Positions 17,684 to 60,727 of a DNA stretch of 64,000 nt are shown piece by piece. Under the pieces are notes generated by a model, which saw only the letters and a list, made by a program, of their open reading frames with translations, did not search any database and was not told the origin of the DNA. The position numbers and the translations under genes are program-made. Numbering within the stretch: position 1 is the stretch's first letter; each line of letters starts with the position of its first letter. The stretch comes from a virus. Where the stretch lies: the IMG/VR virus record IMGVR_UViG_3300029982_000012; one strand, written 5' to 3'.

Positions 17684-17909
17684 AACTCACAAACGAAACC
17701 GATAAAGAACTGGAAGTTAAAGCAGATGAATATGCTGAAAATACTGAGTTAAACTATACTGATGAATTGTCGGAGGCCTTCAAAGCTGGAGCAGCTTACG
17801 GTGAAGCCAGGGCGTGGGAGAGTTTTTATTGGTTGATCGCAAGAGACTTCGGAAGCGGACCAATTAACCCGAATCATTTGCTAGAAGAAATTAAACGCCG
17901 AGGCATCCT

Positions 17910-31244: not shown

Positions 31245-33395
31245 TTATGAAGCAGATTGTGTAACTGCACTAAGAGCAAGATTGATTGCTACGAAGTAAA
31301 TGCTGGTTGTTAATTTTGCTTCCACATTCACATACATTGAGGGAGCCGTAATTTGGATACTTGCATTCTTGTATCCAAGTGGCGCATCACTTGAAGTGGT
31401 AGTCATTTTCAGTTTTTTGTAATAATCAAAACGTTGTTGCAGGAAACTTAAAGCTGAAGCAGCAGAAACGTCCGCTACAGACTTACCAACGATCGCAGTT
31501 TGGAAACTTTGTGCCAAGTCAAGAGATAAAATATCAGAAAGATAAACTGATTGAATTGAATTGTATACAAAGTTTTGGTCGAGTCCGTAAGTAGTTTGAT
31601 CTGATACCCAAAGAATGCCTGAAGTGTTTTGAGCAAGAACTAAAAGTCCTGCAGTCAAAGCATCAGAAACATCATCTGGATCACCAGAGTTATAACCAGC
31701 AGGATCTTGGAACGAAATTGCGTTCGTCAAATGATTGCAAATTGATTTGTAGAAACCTGCAGTCTGCATCCCAGCAGCCAAACAAGCAGCATACCAAGGC
31801 AAGAACAAGGTACTATTACCCAAAGAGTTAATTTGTGTAACTTGCTGACAAGTCAAATCACAACGATAACTTGCAAGTTCTTGAGCTTGAACTTTGCAAT
31901 TTGCATAAGTATCGTTGATCGATAAAATTGCAGTACGATTGCGTTTCAAAGTAGGAGTTGAATATTGAATACAATGAGATTTTAGCAATTCATTGATCGC
32001 ATTAATCGTATAGGTAGAAGATGGAGAAGTATTGCCAGCAGCGATGTCAGCAGTTGCATCTTGAGAAAATAAAGGAACAATAATGTTCACTTGAATTCCA
32101 GCAAATTGGGCAATTGCATTCACGATATCAGCAGCGAGAGTCGGTCCGAGCAATCCACCTGAAAGATAAGCAAGAGCAGCAGGATCTGGAAGACCAGCAA
32201 CTGCCGTTGAAGTAAAGTTAACCGCAGTAGAGGTTGAGAGAGCGGCTTCGAAAGCAGCAACAGAGTTTTTGATACGACCTGGCTGAACATCTGCGGTAGA
32301 AGCGATCCCAAGAGCAGTTACTTGATCTAAAGCAGAAGTAGGATTTGAATTTACTGAAGAATTGTAACTAGCCGAATAACCTGGTTGAGAATTAATGTAG
32401 GCCGCAAGTTGACCAATAGTGGTGAATTGATTTAATTCTATAGATAAATTTGCTCCAATTCCACCAGTTACAGTAGTAGTTAATGTAGTAGCATTAATGG
32501 TAACAGTTGCAGTTGTTCCTTCATAGCCCATAGAAAGAGCGATTACTGGAGAAATATTAAGAGTCTCATTAAGACCAGTGCTAGAATTAACGATTTGAAC
32601 TTCAACCGCTGGTTCATCCGAAGAAGTATAGAGACCTGAAGAAAATCCTAATGCAGCCAAATCACCTGGAGTCGAATCGATTAACTCAAACGATTTTCCG
32701 AATCCTTCGCTATAAGCAGCAGCATCGGCTGGAAGACTGATAGAAACAGTATTTGGAGCAGTTCCAGGAGCAGCAACTAAAGTTGTAGCCATTGCTGTGA
32801 AAGTAGCATTTAATGAAGTTACCAATGTCGCAACGTTAGTAATTGTTCCTGTAGGAGTAATTACTATGGAAGGACCACCATTTACCCGAACAGTAAAAGT
32901 AGCACCAGAAAGACCACTGTATGAAGTGATAGTATTTCCGGTAATGGTTGGAGCAACTTCAGCTTGAAGTGCGGTAGTGGTGTAACTATATTGATTTCCA
33001 CCGGATCCATAGTTTGAAGCAACTAATGTCCCATAAGTAGAAGCAGAATGGGTCAACATGAAAGCAGATGCTTCACGACCTCTATTTGTTTTACAGATAT
33101 AAATTGAAGATGGAGCACCGGTAATATCTGGATCATTGCTTGAAGCACATAAAGCTGCGAAACCATCAACGATTGGACCTGAACCATAAATACTTCTAAC
33201 GGTATTTAAGGCAGAAGGACCAAAAAAGTTATTGGCTAATGTTGTAACGGTATAATCAGGACCCGCACTAGCTTCGCCCATGATGAGGACGACACCTGAG
33301 GTAGCCAAGCCAGATGCATTTGAAATCACCTGAGTGTTGGTATAGGCACCTGGGACATTTGTGTTTAACCACGGAGTAACAATTCTTTGTGACAT
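31245..33395 (-). CDS. tail sheath protein
   Basis: 716 aa; N-terminal VPGAYT...LIMGEA..GP and C-terminal sheath pattern (DQTTY...NSIQ). Confidence 0.9.
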   Translation of the reverse strand: MSQRIVTPWLNTNVPGAYTNTQVISNASGLATSGVVLIMGEASAGPDYTVTTLANNFFGPSALNTVRSIYGSGPIVDGFAALCASSNDPDITGAPSSIYICKTNRGREASAFMLTHSASTYGTLVASNYGSGGNQYSYTTTALQAEVAPTITGNTITSYSGLSGATFTVRVNGGPSIVITPTGTITNVATLVTSLNATFTAMATTLVAAPGTAPNTVSISLPADAAAYSEGFGKSFELIDSTPGDLAALGFSSGLYTSSDEPAVEVQIVNSSTGLNETLNISPVIALSMGYEGTTATVTINATTLTTTVTGGIGANLSIELNQFTTIGQLAAYINSQPGYSASYNSSVNSNPTSALDQVTALGIASTADVQPGRIKNSVAAFEAALSTSTAVNFTSTAVAGLPDPAALAYLSGGLLGPTLAADIVNAIAQFAGIQVNIIVPLFSQDATADIAAGNTSPSSTYTINAINELLKSHCIQYSTPTLKRNRTAILSINDTYANCKVQAQELASYRCDLTCQQVTQINSLGNSTLFLPWYAACLAAGMQTAGFYKSICNHLTNAISFQDPAGYNSGDPDDVSDALTAGLLVLAQNTSGILWVSDQTTYGLDQNFVYNSIQSVYLSDILSLDLAQSFQTAIVGKSVADVSAASALSFLQQRFDYYKKLKMTTTSSDAPLGYKNASIQITAPSMYVNVEAKLTTSIYFVAINLALSAVTQSAS

Positions 33396-34406: not shown

Positions 34407-35124
34407 TCAATCTACAATAGTATTCATCTCTATTAACTTATTGTTTTTATTAATCTTTATTTTTTGCATATCCATAATTGTCTTTTTTCTATGATCTTCT
34501 TTCCAAAGAGGCTGCAAATTAGTGTAATGACATAAAGATTCCAGTTCTTCGATAGTTTTGGCCATAGCCAACGGTATTATATGGTCTATATCCCACAAAT
34601 CTCTATTTTCCCATGACATGTTACCCCTAAATAGCGACTGTATATAGCTAAATGCCTCTTCTATGGAACATCCAAGCATTTTAAGGGTTTTTTTGAGATT
34701 TATCTTTCCCCCTAAAAGCTGCTGAAGTTCGAGACCTTAAATTGGATTCAAAATTGAATAATTTATCATTCTTTCTACGATTTTTTATGTACTGACCCTG
34801 ATAGCTAACCCTTTCTTTTTTATGGTATAAGTAATAATCGTTCTGATAATCAATCCTTTGCTCCTTATGGGCTCCATAGTATTTATTGGCGTCTTCTTTT
34901 ATCTTTTGGGCATTTTCTAAACGCCAAGCTTTATGGTATTCTTTTTGTTTTTCTTTATGTAACTCTCTGTATTTCAATATCTTTTTTATATTTTTCTTGT
35001 AACTTTTCTTGCCGCTAATCTTTCTGCAAGGTTTACATCTATCCTGTAATCCGTTAGGACGAGTAGAATTATGGCCAAATTCTTGGTTTTCTTTAATTGA
35101 TTTACACTTATAGCATTTGGTCAT
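34407..35124 (-). pseudogene. HNH endonuclease split by a 1-nt frameshift in an A7 run
   Basis: Removing one A of CAAAAAAACCC (~34688-34694) joins ...KSQKTLKMLGCS...WDIDHIIPL...HYTNLQPLW. Confidence 0.75.
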
Positions 35125-35469: not shown

Positions 35470-36504
35470 TTATTCTTCATCCTTGTAAGCTATATCGGCT
35501 AATGTGCTCCAATTAACTGTATTCAAATCTTCAAATGTATCTGTTATATTGCTTATAATTTTAAGTCCACCAATATAACCTTCGCCTTCAGATACAGGAG
35601 TTCCATCTGGTTTGGTAGTAGAGGTGCCACCTTGACCCAAGACAGCAGTTTCAAGTAATCTATGTGGTTGATTGTACCATCTATTTTCCACTTGACCGGT
35701 AATCTCTATATCCCTAGACCATATTACTTGACCTGCGTCAGAATAATCTGGATTGGGATACATTTGACCACTTGAAATAAGACTTTCTGCGTAACCATCT
35801 TTTTCTAACAGTGCTTGGCGGTATCTAAGTAAAGAATAGGTTGTAATTGCATGAAGCCAAAGCAAAGTCTGTTGATCCATAGCATTGCAGGTAATTTTGT
35901 AGTTTTCCTTCATGAAGGTATGACTAATTCTAGTTTCATAGAATTGAAATTCTGAAAGGACGCCATATTTTGCTGCTGTTAGACTCAATCCTTTAAATAA
36001 ATTAATTGAATTATTCAAACCAATACTTTGAATCGAATAGCCAGTTCCTGTAGCAGGATCTACAAGAAGCATGCCAGGACTGATATTAGTAAAATCAATG
36101 GTAGAAGAGAAAGTAAATGCACCAGAAGTCGGATTATACGAGCCAGGAATCGGTTTGATTATATATGGGATTTGTTTATTGATATTATTTGGCATCAGTC
36201 TAACTTTTTCAACACTTAAGTCTCCCATGTGTTTCATGTCAGCTTTTTCATTGCTATTACCAATTTGAATTACTACACAAGGAAATTCCATTTTATCGTC
36301 CCTATTGGACATAAAAGTGTACACCCTATTATTGGCAAACCATTGCTTACATGATTCGATTTGGCTGCCGTAACGTTCACGCAGATATTGATTGGAAAGA
36401 GTGTCTCCTAATATATCGTCTAGAAGCCAAGGATTTTTTTGAATATCCTCAAGGCCTAGTTCGATTGCAGTGCGAATTCTTATATCGCCAAAAAATAAAG
36501 ACAT
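35470..36504 (-). CDS. putative tail terminator / neck protein
   Basis: Position between neck genes and sheath; FPCVVIQIG motif. Confidence 0.5.
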   Translation of the reverse strand: MSLFFGDIRIRTAIELGLEDIQKNPWLLDDILGDTLSNQYLRERYGSQIESCKQWFANNRVYTFMSNRDDKMEFPCVVIQIGNSNEKADMKHMGDLSVEKVRLMPNNINKQIPYIIKPIPGSYNPTSGAFTFSSTIDFTNISPGMLLVDPATGTGYSIQSIGLNNSINLFKGLSLTAAKYGVLSEFQFYETRISHTFMKENYKITCNAMDQQTLLWLHAITTYSLLRYRQALLEKDGYAESLISSGQMYPNPDYSDAGQVIWSRDIEITGQVENRWYNQPHRLLETAVLGQGGTSTTKPDGTPVSEGEGYIGGLKIISNITDTFEDLNTVNWSTLADIAYKDEE

Positions 36505-36506
36505 AA

Positions 36507-37307
36507 TTATCTACTTCCGTATTTAGACATCAAAGATGGTAAAATATCTTTTTCCCATCTATCTTCAGCCCATTTCTTCGCTTCTTCGAAGAACTTTTTA
36601 CCTTCTAGCCCTGGATGAATCCATTTACCGTCTTGACCTTCTTTAACGGTTCTAAAGGTTGTTATGCTTCTTTTTACGCTACCATCATCTTTTTTGGTTT
36701 GATAAATGGATAGCCCATGCAACACTGGAGTATTTCCTCTTCCTGGGATCCCACTCTCTATATCAAATGAATGTAATTTACCTATCCTTGGACTTCCTGT
36801 CTTCGGATCTATTTCTAATTTTTTGTAAGGAATATCTCTTTTTCTTAATTCAGATTTTACTTTCTTTATAAGTTCTTGTTGATATTTTAGTTTATCATCA
36901 TTACTACTTAATTCAGATGCTACCTTTCCCTGATCAAAAGCTACGATTCTGTATTTTTTACCATCCTTGCCAGTTTTAATTTCCCCTTTACTCCCAGGTT
37001 TTTTGGTATTCAAAAGACCCTTCTTCATATCGAAATTGTCAGGCAATCCTTTTTCAATCCACTCAGCATCTGCTTTTAAAGTAATCTCCCATAAATAGTC
37101 ATCAATTTTTTCGGCTTGAGATAGATTTTCTAAATAAATTTTACGGCTGGACTTTAATTTATTTTGTGCTTCCTCTACAATATGGGTTTGGGTATCTACT
37201 GCAAGTCCCTTTACTGATTTCTTTAAATCAGACACTACTTCTTTCTTGAAGTTTTCAAGAAATTGGGTAAGTGCCGATATATCTAAGGTGACTTTAAAAT
37301 CAGGCAT
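36507..37307 (-). CDS. putative neck/tail-completion protein
   Basis: FDMKKGLL...TFRTV...WIHPG pattern of myophage neck proteins. Confidence 0.55.
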   Translation of the reverse strand: MPDFKVTLDISALTQFLENFKKEVVSDLKKSVKGLAVDTQTHIVEEAQNKLKSSRKIYLENLSQAEKIDDYLWEITLKADAEWIEKGLPDNFDMKKGLLNTKKPGSKGEIKTGKDGKKYRIVAFDQGKVASELSSNDDKLKYQQELIKKVKSELRKRDIPYKKLEIDPKTGSPRIGKLHSFDIESGIPGRGNTPVLHGLSIYQTKKDDGSVKRSITTFRTVKEGQDGKWIHPGLEGKKFFEEAKKWAEDRWEKDILPSLMSKYGSR

Positions 37308-37308
37308 A

Positions 37309-37518
37309 TTAACCTTTTATAGGTACTCCATTTGGACCTAAGACTCTACCCTCTTTCATATCGATGAAACGGACTCGACCGTTTTCGTCCGTAATCTTCT
37401 TCTGGCCCTTTCCATTGACGCCACCCTCAGGAATAGGATTTGCGGCAAGATGAGTAGTGGTATGTTTTGCAGATAGTTTGCTAGCAGGAATGGGTCCGGC
37501 TAGCCCTGATTTTTTGGG
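37309..37518 (-). CDS. -1 frameshift extension of the mCpol protein (~65 aa, no own start codon)
   Basis: C CCA AAA slippery site; -1 frame KSGLAGPIPASK...GRVRFIDMKEGRVLGPNGVPIKG* ends 1 nt before the next ATG. Confidence 0.75.
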   Translation of the reverse strand, partial: PKKSGLAGPIPASKLSAKHTTTHLAANPIPEGGVNGKGQKKITDENGRVRFIDMKEGRVLGPNGVPIKG

Positions 37519-39539
37519 TCTGGGGCGGCACCCTCCATAGGAGCCGCTTTTTGTTGCATAGGTGCTGGTTTTGGAGGAGACTGTTGTTGAGCAGGCGCAG
37601 TAGGTGCAGGCGCTGAATTAGGAGATGTAGGCGATGGTTCAAGGCCTAGTAATTTACAAAGTTCAATCATTGATTTTAACATTTGAATACAAGAAGTGTA
37701 CAGGCCTTCATTTTGCTCTCTTGTGGCCTCCAACGATTGCTTATTGGCTTTAAATTGTTGAAGAGTTTGCGATACCATATTAACAACTTTTTCTCGTTGT
37801 ATCTGATCTTGATTGTCTTGTAATCCACCTTGCAGAACACCCATCATATCTGGTTGTTCATCACCACCTTGTGAATCGCCCATGACCTGTTCTTCTCCAG
37901 GCATAGGGCTATTAGGATCACTAACTGCTTGTGTATCTTGCTGAAAATCCTGATCTTGGTCTGAAATATTTTGTTTTTGTGCGTCTCCAAAATTCGACTT
38001 CACAGAAACATTGTCTTTCATTGCATCGCCTTGCGGCATCTCAGTATTATCTATTTGTCCGGCTTCCTGAGTAGGATCTGCATTTCCTTGACCAGGTTCT
38101 TGATCTAGTAAATTAAGTACTTCTTCAGCCGTTTCGTGTCCTTGCAAATTAGGGTCTTGTTGGCCATTTTGTGCTGGATCGCTTTCAACTGCATCTCCAT
38201 ACATTTCTTGACACTGAGGGCAATTTTCTGGGTGTTCTGCTCCCATGTCTTGAGCTTCTACATTTGATTGGTCCTGATCATACTCAGCACACCAAGGACA
38301 GTCACATGTGTCCTCGTGTTGTGGATTTGCTTGAGATCCAGTAATATTTTCTGTTTGACAATAAGGACAATCATCAATGTGACCGGTTTCTTGATTAGAC
38401 TGGTTGTATTCTTGACAAGCGGGGCAGTCATCGTGCATACCGGCAGTGCCGTCAGCATTTTCTTGTGCGTCAAGATCTTGACAAAAAGCGCAATCATCTG
38501 TACGGTCATCTTCATTATCGTGATTGTGTTCTTCAGCATCTTCATCGTTTTTATGGATATCGCAAAGCTTGCTTTTGTGTAAGTTACAATATTTTTCGGA
38601 TTTCTTATGATCCAGCATGTGGTTGTCCAAATGACGAGCAGTGGCGCTTATGGCCGATGCCTTTTCATGTAGCCCTTTTGCGTGGTCTTCATGTCTTTTT
38701 TGATTTCCTTGTCTCCACGCCTGTCTTTTTTCTGGATTTGCATTTATTTCTTTGTCCCTAGCCCAATCATCAGAACTTTCATGTCCAGTTTCAATAGGGG
38801 TTGTAGCAGTAGAGTAGGCTCTATGCATATCATGCATTGCCTGGTGCCCTTCTTGATGGGGGGTACCCCTACCTTCATTCCATGCAATTTTTTCATGTTG
38901 TCGTGCTAATCTAGAATGAGTAGGAGAATCCAGCCCCATCATTCCTTCATGGGTAAGTTTGGGCTTGCTATCCCCTAATTTAGGCCCTCTAGGTTTTTTG
39001 GTAGCAGTTTTCTTGTCCACCAATTGAGCATCCGCTTTATGTAAATTACATAGTCCCATAAGTTCACTCTTTTCCAGATAGGCCTCAGCAAGTTTATATT
39101 CCTCTTGTGTTGCCCTTTTTTCTCTGACTCTTCTTTTGGCTTTTTTAATATCTTCTTTGATATATTTATTGAAATAAACAATTCTATTTTTGCCACGAAG
39201 TTTCGCAACCAATAGGGCGGTGCCAGCCTCTGAAAGATTTTTCCCTACTCCAGCAGAAATAGTGTACCCAAATGATTTTTCGACACCGCTTCTTAATTCT
39301 TTTATTTTCTTTCTAGACTCTGGAGGAATAGCCATTGTAGCTTCATCTCCACCACCAGAAATTTTTGCTCCGTCATTTTGCTTGCACCAATGATCAATAT
39401 ATGCTTGGGCCGCATCAATACGGCCAGAAACTTTATGTAGTTCTTCAACATCGTTAGCAATTACGGCCCGACCTACTAGTTTTCCAATGCCATCACCATC
39501 GACAGCTATGTATAGCATCCCTGGCTTAATCTTTTCCAT
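37500..39539 (-). CDS. mCpol/GGDEF-like nucleotide cyclase domain fused to His-rich, CxxC-repeat and acidic regions; putative internal virion protein
   Basis: YIAVDGDGIG...ISGGGDE...TISAGVGKNLSEAGTALLVAKLRGKNRI in aa ~8-124. Confidence 0.75.
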   Translation of the reverse strand: MEKIKPGMLYIAVDGDGIGKLVGRAVIANDVEELHKVSGRIDAAQAYIDHWCKQNDGAKISGGGDEATMAIPPESRKKIKELRSGVEKSFGYTISAGVGKNLSEAGTALLVAKLRGKNRIVYFNKYIKEDIKKAKRRVREKRATQEEYKLAEAYLEKSELMGLCNLHKADAQLVDKKTATKKPRGPKLGDSKPKLTHEGMMGLDSPTHSRLARQHEKIAWNEGRGTPHQEGHQAMHDMHRAYSTATTPIETGHESSDDWARDKEINANPEKRQAWRQGNQKRHEDHAKGLHEKASAISATARHLDNHMLDHKKSEKYCNLHKSKLCDIHKNDEDAEEHNHDNEDDRTDDCAFCQDLDAQENADGTAGMHDDCPACQEYNQSNQETGHIDDCPYCQTENITGSQANPQHEDTCDCPWCAEYDQDQSNVEAQDMGAEHPENCPQCQEMYGDAVESDPAQNGQQDPNLQGHETAEEVLNLLDQEPGQGNADPTQEAGQIDNTEMPQGDAMKDNVSVKSNFGDAQKQNISDQDQDFQQDTQAVSDPNSPMPGEEQVMGDSQGGDEQPDMMGVLQGGLQDNQDQIQREKVVNMVSQTLQQFKANKQSLEATREQNEGLYTSCIQMLKSMIELCKLLGLEPSPTSPNSAPAPTAPAQQQSPPKPAPMQQKAAPMEGAAPDPKNQG

Positions 39540-42859: not shown

Positions 42860-43984
42860 TTACTTTTCCTTACTGTACGCATCTCTAATCTTTTTGACAT
42901 AGGGATGATTTGAAATAGAATTTGCATTGTTCTTCTTGGTACCAGTTATACCTTGATTCCAAGCAAAAGCCGTTTGATCGGGGTTATTTTTAAAATTGTG
43001 CTCTATGTGGGCTAGATGACGATCTGCTATTATTTCTTCAAGACCTTTGTTATCCTGCATAAATCTGTGCAATTGAGGACCCTTTAATGTCAGGGCCTTC
43101 CCATATTTTGCTTGAAGGTCCTTGTGTCCCTTAATAGTATCTGTAATGGTGTTAGGCATTAAAGCCCATTTACCATAAGCCTGACCTTGAGAAGTAGGAG
43201 CGTGGTTTGTATTTTTCCCACCACTTGATTCTACTTGCATGATAGCATTTAGCATTTTTTTGTGATCGTAATTATTTTGATGGGCTTGCATGTCGGGAGA
43301 ATTTTTGATATTCGAAGTATGATTAGTGCCTCCAGCTAGCGCTGCTGCCATGCCCAATCCTATACCGACATTTTTTAGTGCGCCTTTTTCTAGGACTTGT
43401 TCGGACTTATTGACGGATAATTTTGCGGTATAGTCGCTCTGATCAGGAAATTGGGGTTCAGCACTATCTGATTGATGATGGTAGGTTTTTAGCCTCTTAG
43501 GACCCTTTTTCAATTCTGCATTACCAAATTCAATTCCTGCTTCCTTTGCGGTTTTAGCGCCAGAGGATTTAATTTTGTCATGCATATCTTTAGGAACACT
43601 GATATGGGGTGCCCATTCACGTTGTTCAGGAAGTCCCATATGTGCAAATTTACCATGATGCTCTTTCATTTTCTCTGCAGAATTACCTTTTAATGTAATG
43701 ACAAAAACATCCGATCCATTACGATCTTTAAATTGGTTTGGTTCTATCTGAGTATTTTTTGCATCAGGAGGATTCAATGGAAGGTGTTTGGCCATGTTAT
43801 GAATTTCGTGAGCGTGATCTTTATTTGCGTCGAATTCTTTGATGGTAGAATGGTATGGGATACCATTATCTGACCTACAATCTTGACCATTAATCTTTAC
43901 TGGATATAGTAAAATCAACCCTTTATTGGCTTGTTCAGCATATTGGGCAGGATTTTCAGATTTATTTATTAAATTACATTCCAT
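42860..43984 (-). CDS. 2H phosphoesterase (Acb1-like) - lytic transglycosylase fusion, putative internal virion protein
   Basis: PYHSTI and APHISV (two HxT/S motifs); AIMQVESSGG...AYGKWALMPNT...AWNQG (SLT motifs). Confidence 0.75.
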   Translation of the reverse strand: MECNLINKSENPAQYAEQANKGLILLYPVKINGQDCRSDNGIPYHSTIKEFDANKDHAHEIHNMAKHLPLNPPDAKNTQIEPNQFKDRNGSDVFVITLKGNSAEKMKEHHGKFAHMGLPEQREWAPHISVPKDMHDKIKSSGAKTAKEAGIEFGNAELKKGPKRLKTYHHQSDSAEPQFPDQSDYTAKLSVNKSEQVLEKGALKNVGIGLGMAAALAGGTNHTSNIKNSPDMQAHQNNYDHKKMLNAIMQVESSGGKNTNHAPTSQGQAYGKWALMPNTITDTIKGHKDLQAKYGKALTLKGPQLHRFMQDNKGLEEIIADRHLAHIEHNFKNNPDQTAFAWNQGITGTKKNNANSISNHPYVKKIRDAYSKEK

Positions 43985-43988
43985 AAAA

Positions 43989-44933
43989 TTAAATATTCGA
44001 TACCAAGAATTTAGTTGCAAAAGTAGCTTTTACTTTACCAACCAATTCCATTTTTTTCTTTTCTAATTGTTCGATGTAAGGAAGGTACATTCTAGGGCCA
44101 GGTCCAGAAGATGATTGGCTGATACCATCCCTACTCAATGACTGACTTGTAGTCAGAAACAGATTAGTGATCACAGAGAGCATATTAATGGCAGCAATGG
44201 TTCCCACTAAATCATTGATCACTGTAGGAAACTGACCTTCAATTTTTGAAACACCGGTCTGATAAACAATTTGCCAAAATCCAGGAACAAAAGTAAGTGA
44301 ACTAAAAACATTCAAATACGGAATACCACCGTAAGCACCAACTCCGCCGCCACTAGCAACAGAGTAGGCACCTAGAATTGGTACTACGTTAACAATACCT
44401 TTAGCAAAGTTACTAGGCTCAAGCCATTCAGGTGGAATTTTAAAAACCGCATACCCATCACTACTAACAATTTGAACGCTTTGTACAGCCAAGATAGGAT
44501 TTTGTTCTGTTTTTAAATAAATGAAACTTTTGTAGAGAGCGATATCGAATGGGACCTTATCAGTAAACTGTTCTCTGCTTAAAGTAATCTTACAAAGCAT
44601 TTCGACTTCATTAATAGCCAGACCAATTTGGTCTTTAACGTCTTCAGCACTGTAAGAATCACCATTTGGAAATGCCAAGGGAATCCCTTTGAGATAACGA
44701 GAAATCAATAATTGTGGAGTAAGAATAGGCTCACATCTACTCAATAGACCAGACGATTTACTCATGTGGACTGGATATGCAGCAGAATAGAATTGCTTAT
44801 CCTTATCGAAATTCGGAGGTTGAGGAGTGCCGTCTAATGGACCAGATGTAGGTTTAGGAACCGGCTCATAAGGAGCTTGTTGTTCTACATATGGTGGTCC
44901 TGGCTTAAATGGAGGATTACTCATTAGCAACAT
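43989..44933 (-). CDS. putative head-tail adaptor
   Basis: YLKGIPL...SQSLSRDGISQS pattern of SPO1-like connectors. Confidence 0.6.
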   Translation of the reverse strand: MLLMSNPPFKPGPPYVEQQAPYEPVPKPTSGPLDGTPQPPNFDKDKQFYSAAYPVHMSKSSGLLSRCEPILTPQLLISRYLKGIPLAFPNGDSYSAEDVKDQIGLAINEVEMLCKITLSREQFTDKVPFDIALYKSFIYLKTEQNPILAVQSVQIVSSDGYAVFKIPPEWLEPSNFAKGIVNVVPILGAYSVASGGGVGAYGGIPYLNVFSSLTFVPGFWQIVYQTGVSKIEGQFPTVINDLVGTIAAINMLSVITNLFLTTSQSLSRDGISQSSSGPGPRMYLPYIEQLEKKKMELVGKVKATFATKFLVSNI

Positions 44934-45507: not shown

Positions 45508-46131
45508 ATGCTTAAAGTAGAATTCGAAGGTACAGATGGCGCAGGAAAGACAACCGGCCTTAAATATTTCATTGAACAGGCCAAGAAACGTGGTTTTTCA
45601 GTAACCGAAACCCGCGAAGTGGGCAATCCGCATATTCCAGCATGTGTGAAAATGCGGGAATTAGTTCTTGACCCAAATAGTAACCTAAGCGGCGAAGCAA
45701 TGGAGCTTGTTTTTTCCGCAATGCGATTCGAAAATGATCGATGGTTAAAAACGGTAAATTCACAGTTAGTCGTATCTGATCGTGGATGGTTGAGTCATCT
45801 TGCCTATACCGATCATAATGTGGACGAAGATTTTACTAAGAATCTTTATGAGCGTTTTGTAGGACTTGAAACCCAGTTACCCGGCGCAGTTATTTATTTT
45901 GATGTTAGTACAGATACAGCCCTTAAGCGTCGCAATAATCGTGGCACTTCCGATGTTATTGAGATGAAAGGTGTACCTTTTCAAGAGAAAGTTCGATCTT
46001 CTTTCGAAAAACATCTTAATCAATATGGACAGTTCATGAAAGTATTTCGAGTTAATGCGAATGGTACTATTGACGAAGTACGACAAGAACTAGACGGTAT
46101 TCTAGATAAGATCGCAACACTACCCCTATAA
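45508..46131 (+). CDS. tmk: thymidylate kinase
   Basis: FEGTDGAGKTT P-loop, TRE, VVSDR. Confidence 0.95.
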   Translation: MLKVEFEGTDGAGKTTGLKYFIEQAKKRGFSVTETREVGNPHIPACVKMRELVLDPNSNLSGEAMELVFSAMRFENDRWLKTVNSQLVVSDRGWLSHLAYTDHNVDEDFTKNLYERFVGLETQLPGAVIYFDVSTDTALKRRNNRGTSDVIEMKGVPFQEKVRSSFEKHLNQYGQFMKVFRVNANGTIDEVRQELDGILDKIATLPL

Positions 46132-46707: not shown

Positions 46708-46742
46708 ACAAAAAAGCCCCCATAGAATTAACTATGGAGGCC
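46708..46742 (-). terminator. intrinsic terminator after major capsid gene
   Basis: CCATAG/CTATGG stem then GGGCTTTTTTG on the minus strand. Confidence 0.75.
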
Positions 46743-46766
46743 CTTTAAATCAATGATGTTTAAGTC

Positions 46767-48170
46767 TTAGGTGAAAAGTTGTCCTTGAAGATTTTCAACG
46801 ATAGCGTTCTTACGTGGAGCTTCTACTGCGAGAGTAGTCCAACGATAGAAAGCGTTATTGATTGACAATTGACTAATACCTAATTGGATTTTTTTGAATC
46901 CGCTTAGCTCACCTAAATGCATCGTGTCTTTTTGAATCAAGAAACCGGTTAAAGCACCTGGAGCCAAGTTACCAAGGTCGGTGAAAGTAGCACCGCTTGG
47001 AAGAGCAAGAATATTACCGATAAAGAGTGGTCCTGGAGCAACGTTTGCAGCCACACCAGCAGCAGTACGATAAACGCGGTAGTAAAGAGCACCGGCAACT
47101 GCACCGATAGCAACTGATACTTTATTTCCAGCGAGAGCAGGAGTAACAGTTGTTACAGCAGAAGTTGGGCCTTCGCCGAAAGCGTTAACTGCAGCAGCTT
47201 GGTAGCTATAAGCAGCAGCTTGGAGGAGTGATCCAGCAGCGCCACCGTCAGTAGCAGTTGCTGTTGGAGCAGCAGGAGCGCCTACGATAGATTGGTTGAT
47301 AGGGCTAATTTGCTTACGCAAGTACTGAGACATTTCCATGGTGATTGCACCGCTAGAAGTCCATTGAGTACGTAAGTGAGAACCAGTAGCTTCTTGTGGG
47401 CTACCAGCAAGAACGATACGTTCTTTAGCTTGGCTAATTTTGTTGTAAGCAGAGAGAGAAGAAGGATCAAGCATAAGTTTGTCAGCGCGACCCATGTTAA
47501 GGGCAGAACGAACTGAAATATCTTCAATCAATGATTGGGTGAGGGCTGCGCCACCTGCAGAGAACACTACAGTTGCACTTGAACCGTATGATGCGAACAT
47601 GAGATCTTGTCCATTGCGCTCATAGTCAGAAGCACGAACTTGAAGATCAACACCGCGCATATTTGGCAATGCAGGTACTAACGCTGGGTTACCATCGAAA
47701 ACACCTTGGTTAGAGAAATCTGAGTTACCTGCGAAAAGGTCGAACTCGATATCTTGAGCCAAGTTAAGAGCTGCGTCTTGTGCTTGGCGCTCTTCAGCAG
47801 AAACTTTATCGAAAGTTTCAACTGCGTTAGCTACCAGTGAATGCTCACGAGTATCAACGTAGTAAGCCATTGGAATTACGAGACGAGCTGCTTGACCAGT
47901 CTTTTTGGCTCCGAGCATACCTTCGTATGCAGCAGATCCACCGAAACGACCTACAGACAACTTGCGGTTGTACTGATAAAGGTTGCTTTTTGCAGGACGA
48001 CTGTCCAACATTTTTTGCAATTTGATGGTTTCTTCAGCAGCAGTCACGTTTACCATAACTGGCGCTAAATCTTCGATTTGGTAAGCTGCACCTTGTACTA
48101 AAGTACTAGGGGCTGCATTATAACTGCCTGCTTCCAATGCTTTCATGAGGCCCTGAAGTTGTTCTAACAT
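46767..48170 (-). CDS. major capsid protein
   Basis: 467 aa, strongly biased codons, MKALEAG...GAAYQIEDL N-arm like Herelleviridae MCPs, strong terminator. Confidence 0.9.
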   Translation of the reverse strand: MLEQLQGLMKALEAGSYNAAPSTLVQGAAYQIEDLAPVMVNVTAAEETIKLQKMLDSRPAKSNLYQYNRKLSVGRFGGSAAYEGMLGAKKTGQAARLVIPMAYYVDTREHSLVANAVETFDKVSAEERQAQDAALNLAQDIEFDLFAGNSDFSNQGVFDGNPALVPALPNMRGVDLQVRASDYERNGQDLMFASYGSSATVVFSAGGAALTQSLIEDISVRSALNMGRADKLMLDPSSLSAYNKISQAKERIVLAGSPQEATGSHLRTQWTSSGAITMEMSQYLRKQISPINQSIVGAPAAPTATATDGGAAGSLLQAAAYSYQAAAVNAFGEGPTSAVTTVTPALAGNKVSVAIGAVAGALYYRVYRTAAGVAANVAPGPLFIGNILALPSGATFTDLGNLAPGALTGFLIQKDTMHLGELSGFKKIQLGISQLSINNAFYRWTTLAVEAPRKNAIVENLQGQLFT

Positions 48171-48205: not shown

Positions 48206-49204
48206 TTACTTAAGCAGATGGCTAACCTTTTCAATGTTTTTTGTAAAGTAGTAGCTGTTAATGGCATCTCTATCTGACTTAGAAAGAGACTGATCTTTCG
48301 CTTTAGCTAGAAGCTTGGAATCAATTTCACTCTTAGAAAGTGGCTTTTCCTTCGTCATGCTTTCGGTTTTAGCGATAACATCCAACGAAGTGATTGCTTT
48401 TCCTGCAGGAGCCGCTTTCTTTACAAATTCTTTTAAGAAAGTTTCTACTGCGTCTAAGTTCTTTTTAGTGGCTTCCGCTTCAGCTTTAGCAGCCTGAAGT
48501 TCTGATTTTAAAATCTGAACTTCTTTAACTGAAGTGGTGTCAACTTCTAGAAATTTTTCAGATTTCTCTAAAGCTTGAGTTCCGCTTGCAGGAGCCGTTT
48601 TTTTGCTAGTTGCTTCACCATCATGAGGACCACCATTAGGGCGATATTCGCCTTCTTTGCTGTCTTCCATTTCGGCTTTTGCCATTTCATTTTCGCTCAT
48701 CGACATAGCCATTCCGTCCATACATTTACGGATACAATCGTGGTGAGCCTTTAATTCAGATCTAGGCATTGAGCTATACATAGAATGCATATGCGCCATG
48801 TCTTCATCGTCGTAACCATGATCTTCACCTTGAGCAGGATTCGCACCAGCTTGTTGTTGATGTTGATCTTTAATGCCTTTATCTGCGTGGCTTTCGCCTT
48901 CCATCGGTTTTCCAGATTTATCCGCAGAAGCTTCTTTTTTGGCATCATTGCCTTCTTGCTTTTGATCTGCAGAAGCATTGCGGTTATCGTCTGATTTTCC
49001 GCCTTCTTTATTTTCACTAGCGCTAGTTTTTTCGTCTTTAGCGCTATTTTTCTTGTCATCGGCCATGCCGTTGATTTTCTTGTCTTTAGGCTGCTCGTCT
49101 TCGTTTTTGGATAAACCCAAAGACTGTTCAGCTTTAGCTAAATGAGATGTAAATTCTTTCGTTACATCCTCAATTAGGCTGCTAAGTTCTTTTTCAGTAT
49201 ACAT
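48206..49204 (-). CDS. putative scaffolding protein
   Basis: Charged, low complexity, directly upstream of MCP, many xxKS/A-E sites. Confidence 0.7.
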   Translation of the reverse strand: MYTEKELSSLIEDVTKEFTSHLAKAEQSLGLSKNEDEQPKDKKINGMADDKKNSAKDEKTSASENKEGGKSDDNRNASADQKQEGNDAKKEASADKSGKPMEGESHADKGIKDQHQQQAGANPAQGEDHGYDDEDMAHMHSMYSSMPRSELKAHHDCIRKCMDGMAMSMSENEMAKAEMEDSKEGEYRPNGGPHDGEATSKKTAPASGTQALEKSEKFLEVDTTSVKEVQILKSELQAAKAEAEATKKNLDAVETFLKEFVKKAAPAGKAITSLDVIAKTESMTKEKPLSKSEIDSKLLAKAKDQSLSKSDRDAINSYYFTKNIEKVSHLLK

Positions 49205-50399: not shown

Positions 50400-52037
50400 A
50401 TGTCAACTTTTCTCCATGGTGTCGGAACTGTTCAATTTATAGATAAATCGGGAGAACTCCTTGATCTTAAAGGATTAAGTATAGATTCTCTCGAAAAGAC
50501 TGGCGTTATCAACTATGAACACAAGAGCGATGTGCCAGCCCAATTAGTTGGCAAGATATTGAAAGCAAAGAAGATTTTCTCAAAAAAAGACTGCGCAAAC
50601 GAACACGAACTCTATTTTTGGAAGAAAACCAAAACCCCATATTTATACATCATGGCCGAGTTGTTAGATGACTATTGCGATAGCGCAAAACACGTTGCAG
50701 GTATGTTGAGATACGACAGAGACAGAAAAGACCAAAACGAATACAATATTGTGTGGTTTAGTATTGAAGGCAGTGAAATCCCAAATACTAGAGTGGGCAA
50801 GTCCATTATTACAAGAGGTATTGCACGTAAGGTTACTTTGACTTCTGCACCATGTAATGCGGCAGCTGCAGTTGAAATTCTTGAAAACCAAGCACCAAAA
50901 ATTAAAGACGACTTTGATGAAATATTTAAAAGCGAACAAGAAGCTATCACTTTATTCAAAACGGGTGAAGGTGAAAAGTTGTACGAAACCTATTTAGCAA
51001 AAAAAGAAGCCGAAGGCCCAAGCACTGGCGGTAAGCCCCCAAAGAATCCCTACAATGAATATCAAAATAGCGGCACTAGAATTGGTAAAACAAAATCCGG
51101 TAAGACTGTTTGGTCTCACGGACACATTGGCGATTACAGTTTTAATCCTGCCGAACACCAAGAAGCTGCCGAACATCATGAACGGGCTTCTGTAATTTCT
51201 GAGAATCCAAAACTTGCTGATAACCACGCGCAACGTGCAGTTGCTCACGCTAATGCTGCTAAATCCGGTGGTCGTCAAGAAAATCGTGCAGCACTTTCTC
51301 TTAACCAAAAAGATAAGGTGGCTCAGGAGCAAGGAAAACAAGTGTCTAAAGCCGAATATTGTGAAAAACACAAAAAATTACAAAAAGCTGATGGACCAAA
51401 ATGGTCGGGACCAAAAGTAACTGGTGACGCCATACATTTTTCTCATCCAGAACACAATATCGTTAGTGTCCATAAACAGCCTTCTGGAGAATTTCACGTA
51501 AAACACAATGGTAGAGTTGCTGGCGTGGGTGGACAAAAAGGCGTATTCAATAATGCAAAAGATGCAGGGGCACACGCACAAAAATTCATGAGTGGGTTAA
51601 GTAGTGGTAAGATAACCGCTCCAGCGATGCAAAACCATCCATCACCTTCAATTATTGGCAATACATCTATCAAAAAAGCAATTACTGCTGGTAGTACGAA
51701 TGCAGCACCTTCAACTTTGGTAAATGGAGCTGCCTACCAAACAGAAAGTCTTGCTAAAGAACAATCTCCTTCAGAAGAACATAATTTTAAAGGCTCAAAA
51801 AAGAAAGACTGGAATTTAAGAGCCAAGCAAGATTACGAAAAATGGCCTCATAGGGAAAAGTTTGAGAAGTTCATGAAGTCAAAAATGCCTCACCTTTCTA
51901 AGGGTGAAATAGCAGCTTTTGGCAGAGTAATTGCACTCAAGAAGAATATCGAATTTGAAAATTCTTTAAGCGATCTAGTTGACTTTAATAAATCTGAAGA
52001 TGCTAAAAAAGTAATTGTATCAAATACAAAAAAGTAG
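50400..52037 (+). CDS. prohead (capsid maturation) protease with long C-terminal extension
   Basis: DKSGE, INYEH, VGKI, FSIEG, VTLTSAPCN motifs (HK97/herpes-type protease). Confidence 0.85.
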   Translation: MSTFLHGVGTVQFIDKSGELLDLKGLSIDSLEKTGVINYEHKSDVPAQLVGKILKAKKIFSKKDCANEHELYFWKKTKTPYLYIMAELLDDYCDSAKHVAGMLRYDRDRKDQNEYNIVWFSIEGSEIPNTRVGKSIITRGIARKVTLTSAPCNAAAAVEILENQAPKIKDDFDEIFKSEQEAITLFKTGEGEKLYETYLAKKEAEGPSTGGKPPKNPYNEYQNSGTRIGKTKSGKTVWSHGHIGDYSFNPAEHQEAAEHHERASVISENPKLADNHAQRAVAHANAAKSGGRQENRAALSLNQKDKVAQEQGKQVSKAEYCEKHKKLQKADGPKWSGPKVTGDAIHFSHPEHNIVSVHKQPSGEFHVKHNGRVAGVGGQKGVFNNAKDAGAHAQKFMSGLSSGKITAPAMQNHPSPSIIGNTSIKKAITAGSTNAAPSTLVNGAAYQTESLAKEQSPSEEHNFKGSKKKDWNLRAKQDYEKWPHREKFEKFMKSKMPHLSKGEIAAFGRVIALKKNIEFENSLSDLVDFNKSEDAKKVIVSNTKK

Positions 52038-57447: not shown

Positions 57448-58212
57448 TTAGGCGACATTTCTTTGTTCGTTGTACTCATCGTATCCCAACGAAATAAAAT
57501 GTACGAATCCATCTTTAAAGCCCCATCCTGGAGGTAATTGCTGCAATGAACAGCGACAAAAGGGATGCTCACCACAAGAAGACGGTCTAGATTCGCCTCT
57601 TTTGTGATATCCCATAGATAACTCTGACATCTTCCAGACTCGTGGTGTAATCTCGTCATCCATCATATGAAGTCTAAGACATTCCTTACAGGTTTCGCCA
57701 TCTCTTACAATAACGAAAAATACATTAGGGTCTTCAATACCTTCTTGTTTGGATTTATCCACTATTTCCATAGTGTGACCAAGATTTCTGGTCTTAGTGG
57801 ATTCAGCTTCTGCGATTAATTTAATGTCACTTCTAGCTTTTTTCATCGCAGAAGAAATAATATCCGAAACTTGTTTGGCATCAACATGAGAATTGTTGGA
57901 TTTTGCTTCCCTAATCAAGGAATCCACGGCATGAATAACATTTGAACTGGTTTTACTTTTTAGCCCCTCTATGTATCCGTAAGAAGTGTTTAGTGTAGAT
58001 CTTAGAACATCTTTATCGTAATGATTTAGTTCTTTATTATTCATGGCTTGCAAAAATAAATTGGCAAGACTAAATTTAGGTGTAGAACTAAAAAAAGGAG
58101 ATTTATTTCTTACTTTAGGTATATTACCAAGAAATTTGTACGCCAAAGCATCAAACATTTTCTCTATTGCAATGGAAATAGATTCCTTGCCAGAACTGCT
58201 TATGCCCCACAT
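57448..58212 (-). CDS. MuF/gp7-like minor head protein
   Basis: RD..TCKEC...HPFCRCSL. Confidence 0.75.
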   Translation of the reverse strand: MWGISSSGKESISIAIEKMFDALAYKFLGNIPKVRNKSPFFSSTPKFSLANLFLQAMNNKELNHYDKDVLRSTLNTSYGYIEGLKSKTSSNVIHAVDSLIREAKSNNSHVDAKQVSDIISSAMKKARSDIKLIAEAESTKTRNLGHTMEIVDKSKQEGIEDPNVFFVIVRDGETCKECLRLHMMDDEITPRVWKMSELSMGYHKRGESRPSSCGEHPFCRCSLQQLPPGWGFKDGFVHFISLGYDEYNEQRNVA

Positions 58213-58912: not shown

Positions 58913-60727
58913 TTAGTCTTCGTCCTCTTCTAACATATCAGAAATTAACCATTTTAACAAATCTAAAGAGTGTGGTTTTGGAGCATACATAGCAGCCACC
59001 GAATTTGGTGCTATTTGAGCCATTAATTGCAATGACTGCAACGAAAATGGATCTCGTTTGAATCTCATAAGTGGATCCACATACGCTGCAGGACTGCCCA
59101 TAAAGCGTCCTTTTATTTGACCAACATCTAAGTATTTATCCCAAACGAGTTGAATTCTTTCGTTAAATGGTACTTCTCCAGCCATTCCTACACCGATAGT
59201 TGGTTTATCGACATAGTTCAGCACCTCATCATAGGTCATGTGAGTGGGCTGATCTTGTTGTAAGCGAGTAGATTCTTGTTCCTTAGATTCAGCATCTAAT
59301 CCAGCAATTTTGAATACTACGATTTTTGCTAGAATAGGGTCAATGATCGGAATCAACCTTTGATTAAAAAATGTCTCAAGATGCTGGATAATTGGAACAA
59401 ATCCAGAGTCGCGAGCAGCTTCTAATTTGAATTCGTTATTTGATTCGCTTAAAGTCTGACTATTAGAACCCTTACTTAAATGGCCATATCCTGGAAGTTC
59501 ATCAGGAGACATTTGGAAGGTCGCGAGAATGTTCCTTGCAATTTGGTCGTAAATGAATTCAAATGAATCATCTGCTTTATCGTTTGCAAATGAAAGCCAA
59601 TCAATGCTCTCGGTTGGAGATATACCCATTAAAGGAGTACGGAATGAGTTTTGTACACCATTAATACTTGCTTGAAACTCTTGTCTGAATTTCTCTAATG
59701 TAGGAGAATCAACGTCATCCGATTTAATGACCAATGCTCCACGAGTAGCTCTACCATTTTGGAAATAAAGTCTTTTCCAGGTATCAATACTAATATGGGT
59801 AGTAATTGAAGAAATTGCAGTTTCAATTGGTGGTACAGGATATCCGTTCTTTTCAACATCTGTACATGGATAGAAGTCGTGCATCAACAATTCTTCATGA
59901 GTGAAATACTGTTTTGCAATACCTTCTACTTGTTGACACCACGCATACTTATCTTCTCTAAGTTTATCGTAATCAATTCCGATTTTATCGCCAGTAATTC
60001 TTTCAAGTTCTTTAATGGCAAGAATTCTGGTATTAACTCCAGCCTGCTCACCATTTCTTACTGTCTTAAAGATGGTGCCGGAATCGATTGGTCTAAAACG
60101 ATTAAATGGGAATCTACCTTCTGCATCTGGTTCTGATTCTCTATCATAGATGACCTCTGTACCCATCCAACCAAAAGTAAGAGCGTTCTCCACAGAAAGG
60201 GCCAAATACTGACTTAAAGTCATTTTTTGTTGGTTTTCAAGACCTTCTGTATGACCGCAATTTAAGAGAATTGTTTCAAGTCTTTTAATTCGTTCTGTAA
60301 CTTTTTCAAACTGTTCCGTATTTAAAAGTTTATAGAATTCAGGTTTGATTTTAATCTCAATACCTTTATCGAAACGATCGGCACGCTTCTTACCAAATTG
60401 GCTAATTTGACCTGCGCGAGTCCTTAAGATAGCAGCAACTAAGTGATCTTGAACCCTTACGAGTTTCAAAAGAGCATCTGGAATTTCATTTCTCTTAGCT
60501 TTAACTACACCGGCATAAGCATCGTTGTAATTTGGGCTTTCCATGAAGGTAAGCGCAGGAGCTCGTTCTGTGGCTTTTCCTATCGAATCATTTAATGCTT
60601 TTTGTAATGGACGTAAGGTGGTACTGTCAGCTTTTAACTGAGCAAGGGGATCCATGTTGATTTCAGCCGAAAGCGTCAGCGACATGTCTTTTTTTATTGC
60701 AGACTTTTCGTTATTTTCATCGCTCAT
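58913..60727 (-). CDS. portal protein
   Basis: 604 aa near TerL; GYPVPPIE, YFQNG...G.L, FQMSPDEL. Confidence 0.9.
   Translation of the reverse strand: MSDENNEKSAIKKDMSLTLSAEINMDPLAQLKADSTTLRPLQKALNDSIGKATERAPALTFMESPNYNDAYAGVVKAKRNEIPDALLKLVRVQDHLVAAILRTRAGQISQFGKKRADRFDKGIEIKIKPEFYKLLNTEQFEKVTERIKRLETILLNCGHTEGLENQQKMTLSQYLALSVENALTFGWMGTEVIYDRESEPDAEGRFPFNRFRPIDSGTIFKTVRNGEQAGVNTRILAIKELERITGDKIGIDYDKLREDKYAWCQQVEGIAKQYFTHEELLMHDFYPCTDVEKNGYPVPPIETAISSITTHISIDTWKRLYFQNGRATRGALVIKSDDVDSPTLEKFRQEFQASINGVQNSFRTPLMGISPTESIDWLSFANDKADDSFEFIYDQIARNILATFQMSPDELPGYGHLSKGSNSQTLSESNNEFKLEAARDSGFVPIIQHLETFFNQRLIPIIDPILAKIVVFKIAGLDAESKEQESTRLQQDQPTHMTYDEVLNYVDKPTIGVGMAGEVPFNERIQLVWDKYLDVGQIKGRFMGSPAAYVDPLMRFKRDPFSLQSLQLMAQIAPNSVAAMYAPKPHSLDLLKWLISDMLEEDED

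Follow-up and report, generated by a model that had tools for sequence, protein, structure and literature searches.

Why would a phage keep, among the genes that build its particle, an enzyme domain of the kind with which bacteria conduct their immune signalling? The question is raised by a stretch of viral DNA of 64,000 nucleotides (nt) (IMG/VR record IMGVR_UViG_3300029982_000012; the whole stretch is termed the window), in which a minus-strand gene located between the capsid gene and the genes of the neck and tail begins with a domain resembling the minimal CRISPR polymerase (mCpol), an enzyme that, in the accessible parts of the literature, has so far been known only as the bacterial half of the defence system Panoptes. 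All contigs containing this sequence come from peat metagenome DNA, and the source is, on sequence grounds, an uncultured peat phage, a relative of Myxococcus phage Mx1 among the myoviruses, about 160-175 kb in size. The answer that is favoured here, by a small measure, is that a working mCpol-type cyclase is carried on a structural-module tether, whose docking would be dosed by a -1 frameshift, and that the enzyme would be loaded into the head, cut free and delivered.

An mCpol palm domain with a complete active site

The initial annotation, which was made from the letters of the window alone, had quoted four strings as the signature of a cyclase palm, and all of them are present in the protein: YIAVDGDGIG at amino acids (aa) 10-19, GGGDE at 62-66, SAGVG at 95-99 and EA..AL..AK..GKN at 104-118. 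The interval 39168-39539 (minus strand) corresponds exactly to residues 1-124 of a 679-aa open reading frame (ORF) at 37500-39539 (minus strand), and these residues form a genuine mCpol palm, whose active site is complete. The Pfam family mCpol (PF18182) covers aa 10-122 along profile positions 1-113 of 114 with 62.2 bits against a cut-off of 26.4, residues 1-157 taken alone reach 66.3 bits, and all five complete relatives likewise score above the cut-off. In a phmmer search of the PDB sequences, the Panoptes enzyme OptS (9MNR, E 3e-9) and an mCpol (9NWN, E 1.1e-8) were matched, and the alignment to OptS is ungapped through the catalytic region, where D14, D65 and S38 are placed on OptS D6, D57 and S30. 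According to two reports (PMC12657218, PMC12657230), D6 and D57 are catalytic and S30 selects adenine as the base.

The structural comparison led to the same family. An AlphaFold2 model of aa 1-160, which was built on 53 relatives, has a mean predicted local distance difference test (pLDDT) of 92 and a predicted template-modelling score (pTM) of 0.85, and its top six Foldseek matches are OptS/mCpol chains (9PD0, 9MNR, 9NWN; template-modelling score by target 0.83-0.86, root-mean-square deviation 1.7-1.9 Å, 31-32% identity), with GTP cyclohydrolase III (rank 7, E 8.8e-6), GGDEF and Cas10 proteins following far lower (E 1e-5 to 3e-4). The GGDEF family PF00990 gave no match to the protein at E ≤ 10, the motif here reading GGDEA, while Cas10 Palm2 (PF22335) reached 20.8 bits, which is under its cut-off of 27, and no further Cas10 domains were found in the protein. 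The comparison of mCpol with GGDEF and GTP cyclohydrolase III that had been proposed as a check thus falls clearly to mCpol, by sequence as well as by structure, and the best structural match is to the OptS/mCpol chains and not to a non-catalytic ferredoxin fold. The supposition that the acidic metal ligands are intact was borne out as well.

The conservation of these residues was followed through a family of 793 representatives (50% clustering) at E ≤ 1e-3, of which 525 remain at E ≤ 1e-10. All closer relatives that span these sites have both the DGD and the GGDE motif, and in a 53-sequence alignment D14, G15, D16, G19, S38, G63, G64, D65, E66, K113, G116 and K117 are invariant. A wider alignment, comprising the protein of the window and 137 distant representatives (35-58% identity), keeps D14 in 136 of 138 sequences, D16 in 137, and D65, K113 and G116 in all, and each of these positions as well as G63 and G64 is kept in 135-138. 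Since the catalytic Asp, GGDE and Lys are near-invariant across more than 240 relatives, the pattern is that of an enzyme under selection. The remaining key residues of the domain are the base-contact pair S38 and D42. The former takes the place of the S30 with which OptS selects adenine; it is retained by 123 of the 138 sequences and favours adenine as the base. At position 42, which corresponds to N34 of OptS, D, N, E and Q are all found, and the substrate and product are therefore not readable from the sequence.

A homodimer predicted with ATP and Mg scored 0.79 against 0.00 for the best control; similar complexes have been solved (9NWN, 9PD0), so memory may explain this score, which was reached by 20 of 30 proteins whose solved structure is a pair of one chain and by one of 23 whose solved structure is a single chain. 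The prediction runs agreed in at least 71% of contacts with a partner pLDDT of at least 87. In the predicted dimer, S38 and D42 of one chain are opposite the GGG loop of the other chain, and residues 148-154 fall within the interface. We hold with good confidence that the mCpol domain is an active nucleotidyl cyclase, which would dimerise like OptS and constitutively make an adenine-containing cyclic di- or tri-nucleotide; the product of the type II Panoptes mCpol is cA3 (PMC13577387).

An active palm enzyme need not be a cyclic-oligonucleotide synthase. The same superfamily includes Thg1-type polymerases and GTP cyclohydrolase III, the latter standing directly behind the mCpol chains in the Foldseek ranking, and the phage protein might instead be a transferase, of linear oligonucleotides or of nucleotidyl groups, whose targets in the head would be protein or the ends of DNA, or else a hydrolase resembling GTP cyclohydrolase III. 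The variable position 42 leaves room for such chemistry, and the product could be processed by a 2H phosphoesterase encoded nearby. The closest matches in sequence and structure are, however, the characterised cyclases OptS and mCpol by a wide margin, and the predicted symmetric dimer sets the base-contact residues against the GGG loop in a cyclase-like manner, which makes this alternative decidedly improbable.

Compared with the Panoptes enzymes (Klebsiella KpOptS, 9MNR and 9PD0; mCpol of E. coli ECOR31, 9NWN), the phage domain shares the palm fold, the spacing of the Asp pair and the adenine-contact Ser, whereas it has GGDE where OptS has AADG and an Asp at position 42 where OptS has N34. 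It is also followed by an extension of two helices and then by about 550 aa of tail, whose C-terminal module would be under frameshift control, and OptS possesses neither. With Cas10 Palm2 and GGDEF proteins it has in common the superfamily, the GGD[DE] loop and two-metal chemistry, but it lacks the HD domain, the zinc finger, the second palm, the Phe after GGDE and the GGDEF-type N-terminal helices. The two-helix extension marks the phage sequences, which, on alignment, form a phage-specific clade: its members are nearly all 300-1300 aa long, with the domain N-terminal and the match running to aa 156-159. A stand-alone mCpol has about 120-130 residues, a size far exceeded by the 679 or 743 aa of the present protein and by its relatives, and the protein might become minimal-sized after a cleavage at aa 159 that is considered below.

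The only cultured relative found, Mx1 (169.6 kb; capsid identity 46.5%), was reached through its capsid protein, and the other links to it were made by profiles and local tblastn, in which the head-to-neck module is collinear and the orthologue of the mCpol protein is included (WNM70340.1; OR576727.2, 33963-35369). The N-terminal domain of this orthologue is recognised by hhalign with a probability of 97.5% (E 7e-12), and the helices of the carrier region nearer the C-terminus are detectable too (probability 90%); the C-terminal module was not detected in Mx1 at E < 1. The catalytic residues of the orthologue are gone, DGD being replaced by SID and GGDE by LGAV, with K113 and K117 lost, and this counts against the enzymatic reading: the persistence of the orthologue without catalysis argues that the protein serves as a carrier or in the structure in its own right, and that at least one lineage can do without the enzyme. 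An alternative would make the gene product a structural or assembly protein whose palm is non-catalytic and serves as a dimerisation or nucleotide-binding module, as the fold-level similarity and the conserved carrier helices of an orthologue stripped of its acidic and lysine residues would allow. But conservation of the metal-binding Asp, GGDE, K113 and G116 in nearly every sequence, and of the adenine-contact Ser in most, is unexpected for a dead fold, and the model superposes on substrate-bound OptS at 1.7-1.8 Å, so that a catalytically dead palm is very improbable for the phage of the window. As a separate observation, Mx1 carries at 17173-17904 a GGDEF "nucleotide cyclase" (Pfam E 1.3e-9), in the interval from its prohead protease gene to its capsid gene, which may represent a swap of cyclase type within the head module.

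The tethered tail and the module in the -1 frame

Behind the palm domain and its two helices, the protein is built from pieces of very different conservation (Table 1). A His-rich basic insert of about 150 aa is found only in the mCpol protein of this lineage, with duplicated "KSE..CNLHK" junctions at its ends and a candidate protease motif at both ends, the second of which is KKSE at aa 313-316. The extremely acidic region after it contains five CxxC motifs, the commonest number among closer relatives, while 84 of 137 distant representatives have none. The carrier region forms three helices in the model of a relative that reads through in frame (pLDDT about 80-85), and aa 636-679 constitute a Pro-rich end with a conserved AAPxEGAAxxPK; the C-terminal carrier model has a pTM of 0.26, which is too weak for fold comparison.

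The initial annotation had overlooked a conserved C-terminal module that continues beyond the ORF in the -1 frame, and in this respect it has to be corrected. Many relatives run in frame into this module of about 65 aa, and a hidden Markov model (HMM) built only from such in-frame proteins recovered it from the window and seven IMG/VR loci in the -1 frame (E 1e-17 to 1e-33), from 11 loci in the zero frame, from two in the +1 frame, and as a weak trace or not at all from six; a ninth -1 case, on the contig of a bog metagenome-assembled genome (MAG), was read by translation. In alignment, the -1 peptides retain the invariant columns of the module. The module of the window occupies an apparent gap of 192 nt, has no start codon and stops 1 nt before the ATG of the next gene; lying in the -1 frame without a start codon, it is therefore reachable in this phage only by a slip at C_CCA_AAA. 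This heptamer or C_CCA_AAG is common to eight of the nine -1 loci, 9 or 12 nt before the TAG, and none of them has a start codon in the module frame. Moreover, the runs of A at the heptamer comprise three, four or six A in these eight loci (six in the window), which argues against both transcriptional slippage and indel error; transcriptional slippage was accordingly ruled out by the relatives with three or four A. Contigs from three sequencing runs are identical across the slippery site.

Two further elements flank the heptamer. The Shine-Dalgarno-like GGAGG upstream of it is also found in loci L005 and L011, with AGGAG in L025 and GAGGG in L006. Downstream, a predicted hairpin (minimum free energy -19.1 kcal/mol, z -2.3 for an 87-nt stretch) is suggestive of a stimulatory element. 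The E. coli gene dnaX, the G/GT genes of phage lambda and gene 10A/10B of T7 are programmed -1 frameshift cassettes, and the present site resembles them in its heptamer of the X_XXA_AAR class, its Shine-Dalgarno-like GGAGG, its predicted hairpin and its nearby zero-frame stop, in a dnaX-like layout. As in such cassettes, one structural-module gene would give two products differing at their C-termini, but the extension here is a small, conserved, docking-type module and not an Ig domain or half of a chaperone.

Several observations weigh against a programmed frameshift. The hairpin stands modestly above shuffled sequences, its shape is not conserved, the relatives folding differently, and the heptamer is absent from one -1 locus. 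The module lies in the +1 frame in two loci, and it could instead be what is left of a pseudogene, a small protein with a start of its own or the product of an indel in assembly, for which an in-frame ATG in one of the +1 loci and the run of six A in the window might be cited. Such accounts have to meet the fact that the -1 peptides keep the invariant columns and score strongly against a profile of in-frame proteins, that the same heptamer recurs in eight independent loci at the same distance from the TAG with A-runs of three different lengths, that the module frame has no start codon, that the contigs agree across the site, and that 192 nt would otherwise be non-coding within a tightly packed operon. 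They are quite improbable, and a real programmed -1 frameshift, yielding products of 679 and 743 aa, is considered highly probable from these comparisons. The module is in frame in other relatives, so that recoding has repeatedly been acquired or lost. In the accessible part of the literature found, no recoding of this gene family has been described.

In the two +1 loci (L008:7490-7831 and L017:7160-7501), the module starts 4 nt after the TAA with no recognisable +1 slip site, and in L008 the stop is preceded at 41 nt by an in-frame ATG; the module may be initiated on its own, be reached by recoding of another type, or reflect an error. In relative L001 (165 kb), the mCpol gene (L001:10001-11861) is called as 227 aa followed by short genes, with the module in yet another frame, and it has probably been broken up by indels in its assembly.

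A search of the Pfam and PDB profiles with the C-terminal module returned no match. In the prediction, three confident helices and a disordered stretch come first and the module follows as a short beta element, which fits a docking piece that folds on its partner. In the favoured reading, the carrier helices and the module would dock the protein into the assembling particle, and the -1 frameshift would set the ratio of docked to free protein.

Candidate cleavage motifs and the case for packaging

The initial annotation had called the gene product a head protein, a designation based on the position of the gene between the capsid and neck/tail-terminator genes together with an argument from motifs; the position is confirmed, and the protein is a candidate for presence in the particle. 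It had further proposed that maturation could release the enzyme at two points, LEKSE and LHKAD. The former fits the motif h-x-K-[SAG]-E and sits at the end of the conserved N-terminal module, and the part of the proposal that concerns it gained support. The second site, LHKAD (aa 166-170), was rejected, being not conserved and located at the edge of the lineage-specific insert.

The motif is enriched in the scaffold-like proteins of three phages when compared with shuffles, with 6 occurrences against 1.43 expected in the window (P 0.0025), 7 against 0.76 in L001 (P < 0.0005) and 4 against 0.69 in Mx1 (P 0.0045). Among 219 members of the mCpol family, 74 have it exactly 92 residues behind GGDE and 110 have it within the boundary zone, at a background rate of about 0.1 per 55 aa. 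It was not kept in the neck proteins. These distributions imply that h-x-K-[SAG]-E is probably the site of the prohead protease, which would cut the mCpol protein at L-x-K-[SAG]-E (aa 155-159) and thereby free an 18-kDa cyclase in the head, from where it would enter the next host with the DNA.

The motif is also kept in 17 of 17 homologues of a 187-aa protein and in all 21 homologues of the 348-aa protein encoded directly upstream, in which it takes the form [VI]-x-[ML]-[AS]-K-[SG]-E. The h-x-K-[SG]-E of the latter at aa 279 precedes a C-terminal, zinc-ribbon-like piece of about 65 aa (CxxC...CC.C), which is a candidate for a second small cargo released by the protease. As to the protease itself, neither PHROGs nor a pairwise test of the MuF-like ORF recognised one, and a homologue was found by tblastn with the Mx1 protein. 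This homologue covers the N-terminal 190 aa of the Mx1 protease and also has a Pfam match to Cpn60/TCP-1 (4e-9); it is encoded on the strand opposite to the head genes, within a plus-strand block at about 49.9-57.4 kb, with the portal and MuF genes on one side and those of the scaffold and capsid on the other.

Four points tell against cleavage and packaging. Y154 and L155 of the candidate cut site also belong to the predicted dimer interface, and their conservation could therefore be explained without a protease. Half of the mCpol family is without the motif at the boundary position, K-[SAG]-E is absent from the capsid, portal and terminase proteins of the window, and no published virion proteome of Mx1 was found. 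Weighed against the scaffold enrichment and the boundary position, they leave it evenly balanced, on these motifs, whether the mCpol protein is particle-associated and protease-cut.

The protein may then be a late cytoplasmic enzyme that is never packaged: its place in the operon would provide late expression, the tail and the module would regulate, oligomerise or localise it, and the frameshift would tune its isoforms. Accessory genes are common in the structural operons of phages, and here homing-endonuclease-like ORFs and thymidylate genes do stand among the head genes; the catalytic site, moreover, is conserved and is not needed for packaging, and the protein is only a candidate for the particle. 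This alternative is doubtful all the same, as it does not account for the constant position of the gene beside the same neck-module gene, which holds down to 35-40% identity and in Mx1, nor for the survival of the Mx1 orthologue without its catalytic residues and the candidate protease motif at the domain boundary. A C-terminal extension by frameshifting is, in addition, typical of phage structural and assembly proteins.

Enzymes packaged into phage heads include T4 Alt and the internal proteins cut by gp21, the Dar proteins of P1, the MuF-fused toxins and the "polyvalent proteins". The mCpol protein is similar to cargo of the T4 Alt type in that an enzyme and its carrier are encoded in the block of head genes, and in that a Glu-ending motif shared with the scaffold is located at the domain boundary. 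It differs in that the targeting part would be C-terminal rather than an N-terminal capsid-targeting one. To our knowledge, no cyclic-nucleotide synthase has been reported as head-packaged phage cargo.

Genome setting, a neighbouring candidate eraser and a possible role

That such domains are out of place in structural modules, as had been remarked initially, is not upheld: this is a large phage family, always found at this position. The same layout of cyclase, variable acidic linker, conserved helices and C-terminal module of about 65 aa recurs in hundreds of Mx1-like lineages, whose contigs measure 150-235 kb, five IMG/VR relatives of 162-177 kb being rated complete. In the lineages of the family, the gene lies just upstream of the phrog_16819 gene, the tail terminator, the sheath and the tube; distant members again have a phrog_16819 gene next and the sheath farther along, and in these the terminator and tube genes were recognised from size only. 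The window covers the late region of a large myovirus. In it, the start ATG at 39539 is preceded at 9 nt by GAGGA and overlaps the upstream ORF by 14 nt.

Table 1. Coordinates of the recoded mCpol gene, its parts and the related genes in the window.
Feature	Position	Strand	Basis or remark
Terminase	61569..63437		
Portal	58913..60727		
MuF-like protein	57448..58212		
Homologue of the Mx1 "putative prohead protease" (N-terminal part)	50400..52037	+	tblastn, 38% identity, E 7e-29; weak phrog_1028 match
Scaffold-like protein with six h-x-K-[SA]-E motifs	48206..49204	-	homologous to the Mx1 protein upstream of its capsid gene
Capsid	46767..48170		
Two-enzyme protein: 2H-like domain (aa ~21-210), then SLT lytic transglycosylase	42860..44020	-	SLT by Pfam; 2H by motifs and Atlas features
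Upstream gene, 348 aa	39526..40572	-	orthologue of Mx1 gene L002:31850-32788
Whole recoded gene	37309..39539	-	679-aa zero-frame product (TAG 37500-37502); ~743-aa -1 product (TAA 37309-37311)
mCpol palm domain, aa 1-124	39168..39539	-	Pfam; PDB phmmer; model and Foldseek; residue conservation
Two-helix extension, aa 125-158 (helices 127-139 and 145-158)	39066..39167	-	model; matches of distant relatives reach aa 156-159
L-E-K-S-E, aa 155-159, candidate prohead-protease site	39063..39077	-	inferred from motif comparison
His-rich basic insert, aa 161-320	38580..39059	-	occupancy 0.01-0.2 among 94 full-length relatives; junction comparison
Acidic CxxC region, aa 321-460	38160..38579	-	net charge -33; five evenly spaced DDCPxCQ-type CxxC motifs
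Acidic Q/N-rich linker, aa 461-560	37860..38159	-	alignment of relatives; composition
Conserved helical carrier region, aa 561-635	37635..37859	-	alignment; model of in-frame relative
GGAGG, Shine-Dalgarno-like	37532..37536	-	sequence; 13 nt upstream of heptamer
Slippery heptamer C_CCA_AAA (zero frame GAC CCA AAA)	37512..37518	-	9 nt before zero-frame TAG
Predicted hairpin, GCUAGC stem	37480..37504	-	about 7 nt after heptamer
-1 frame extension, 67 aa, conserved C-terminal module	37309..37511	-	in-frame-protein HMM, E 1.3e-24; invariant K, L, T, H, Q, G, P columns
Downstream partner gene, 266 aa, phrog_16819	36507..37307	-	always adjoins the mCpol gene; orthologue Mx1 WNM70341.1
Tail-terminator-like protein	35470..36504		
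Sheath	31245..33395		

The setting is not that of Panoptes. No CARF, SAVED or 2TM-type family was found among the 55 ORFs of the window, where the neighbours are virion genes, and the two-gene operon of mCpol and a membrane effector is not found at this locus, the contigs being phage genomes of 162-177 kb. The phage system therefore differs from Panoptes in being phage-encoded, in having neither a 2TM-beta nor a CARF-TM effector as its neighbour, and in its place within an operon of virion genes. Against 50,697 records of cultured phages, no match was obtained by megablast with the gene region, and none at E ≤ 1e-3 by tblastn with the cyclase domain. PHROGs has no family for the mCpol gene, its C-terminal module or most of its neighbours, and phmmer against the PDB sequences gave nothing credible for three neighbours in the neck region.

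A second protein of potential relevance joins, in the window, a 2H-like domain to an SLT lytic transglycosylase; the 2H-like domain is encoded at a distance of about 3.5-4 kb from mCpol, here as well as in all five complete relatives. It is flanked by INKSE and VNKSE, contains two H-x-[ST] motifs with both His invariant in six of six sequences, and has Atlas features of 0.93 to viral 2H/Acb1 clusters. Pfam Acb1 (PF23474) gave no match in five relatives, controls being equally silent, and the 2H reading is drawn from the motifs and the Atlas features. The SLT part is homologous to aa 1056-1228 of a 1479-aa "NUDIX hydrolase" polyprotein of Mx1, and the enzyme modules in front therefore differ between the two phages. 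Acb1-type enzymes have been reported as triggers of Panoptes (PMC12657230).

Other features of the window bear on the gene less directly. A scan for sigma-70 promoters and terminators over 35-49 kb performed no better than shuffles except for one strong terminator after the capsid gene, a hairpin at 46711-46746 (minus strand) of 15 pairs followed by a T run, which is the only convincing one in that interval; the mCpol gene is therefore probably expressed from a separate downstream transcript or by read-through. Endonuclease VII/HNH-like ORFs, probably homing endonucleases, lie within the structural module at 46126-46659 (minus strand; right after the capsid gene) and 34681-35124 (minus strand), and a Pfam match to the thymidylate-kinase family is guessed, by position, to be the plus-strand ORF 45508-46131. 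The further Pfam families in the window are C5 cytosine methylase, serine resolvase, ThyX, metallophosphoesterase, DUF932, GP88 and a collagen-repeat protein; no tRNAs were found in the 64,000 nt. The labels Deltaproteobacteria (the bog MAG contig of a relative) and Rhabdochlamydiaceae (one protein) were not used for host assignment, the binning of phage contigs being unreliable.

What might a phage gain from an injected cyclase? In Panoptes, as three reports describe it (PMC12657218, PMC12657230, PMC13577387), the product of mCpol restrains a suicide effector until phage sponges or phosphodiesterases remove that product. The likely purpose of the phage enzyme would be a tampering with the nucleotide immune signalling of the host, and such a role in counter-defence is a possibility that falls somewhat short of an even chance. 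In one version, the cyclase would refill the inhibitory Panoptes-type signal while the Acb1-like 2H phosphoesterase erases activating signals; a role directed specifically against Panoptes is unlikely, and it is weakened by the consideration that a co-delivered Acb1-like eraser might destroy the product of the cyclase itself. More speculative still, and rather improbable, is that Mx1-like phages load their heads with an injected "write-and-erase" kit, composed of an mCpol writer released from a frameshift-dosed carrier and an Acb1-like 2H eraser fused to a cell-wall enzyme, in which the eraser would remove activating signals of CBASS or type III systems and the writer would keep the guard effectors of the Panoptes type silenced.

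The components of this picture are known separately, namely the mCpol enzyme family, -1 frameshifting and protease-processed head cargo. The literature found on mCpol and the minimal CRISPR polymerase makes, in its accessible parts, no mention of a phage-encoded mCpol, and a phage-borne, carrier-tethered and recoded form is likewise not in that literature. The mCpol described here is a fixed and apparently active member of the particle-gene block in a large and environmentally widespread lineage of phages. A confirmed cleavage code would make the head cargo of this phage group predictable from sequence. Should the cyclase be active, phages would write immune-type nucleotides besides erasing them, which would be a new move in the signalling arms race and might provide a natural inhibitor of guard systems; and if the "write-and-erase" kit should prove true, it would constitute the first viral answer to decoy-nucleotide guarding and the first second-messenger synthase delivered by a virion.

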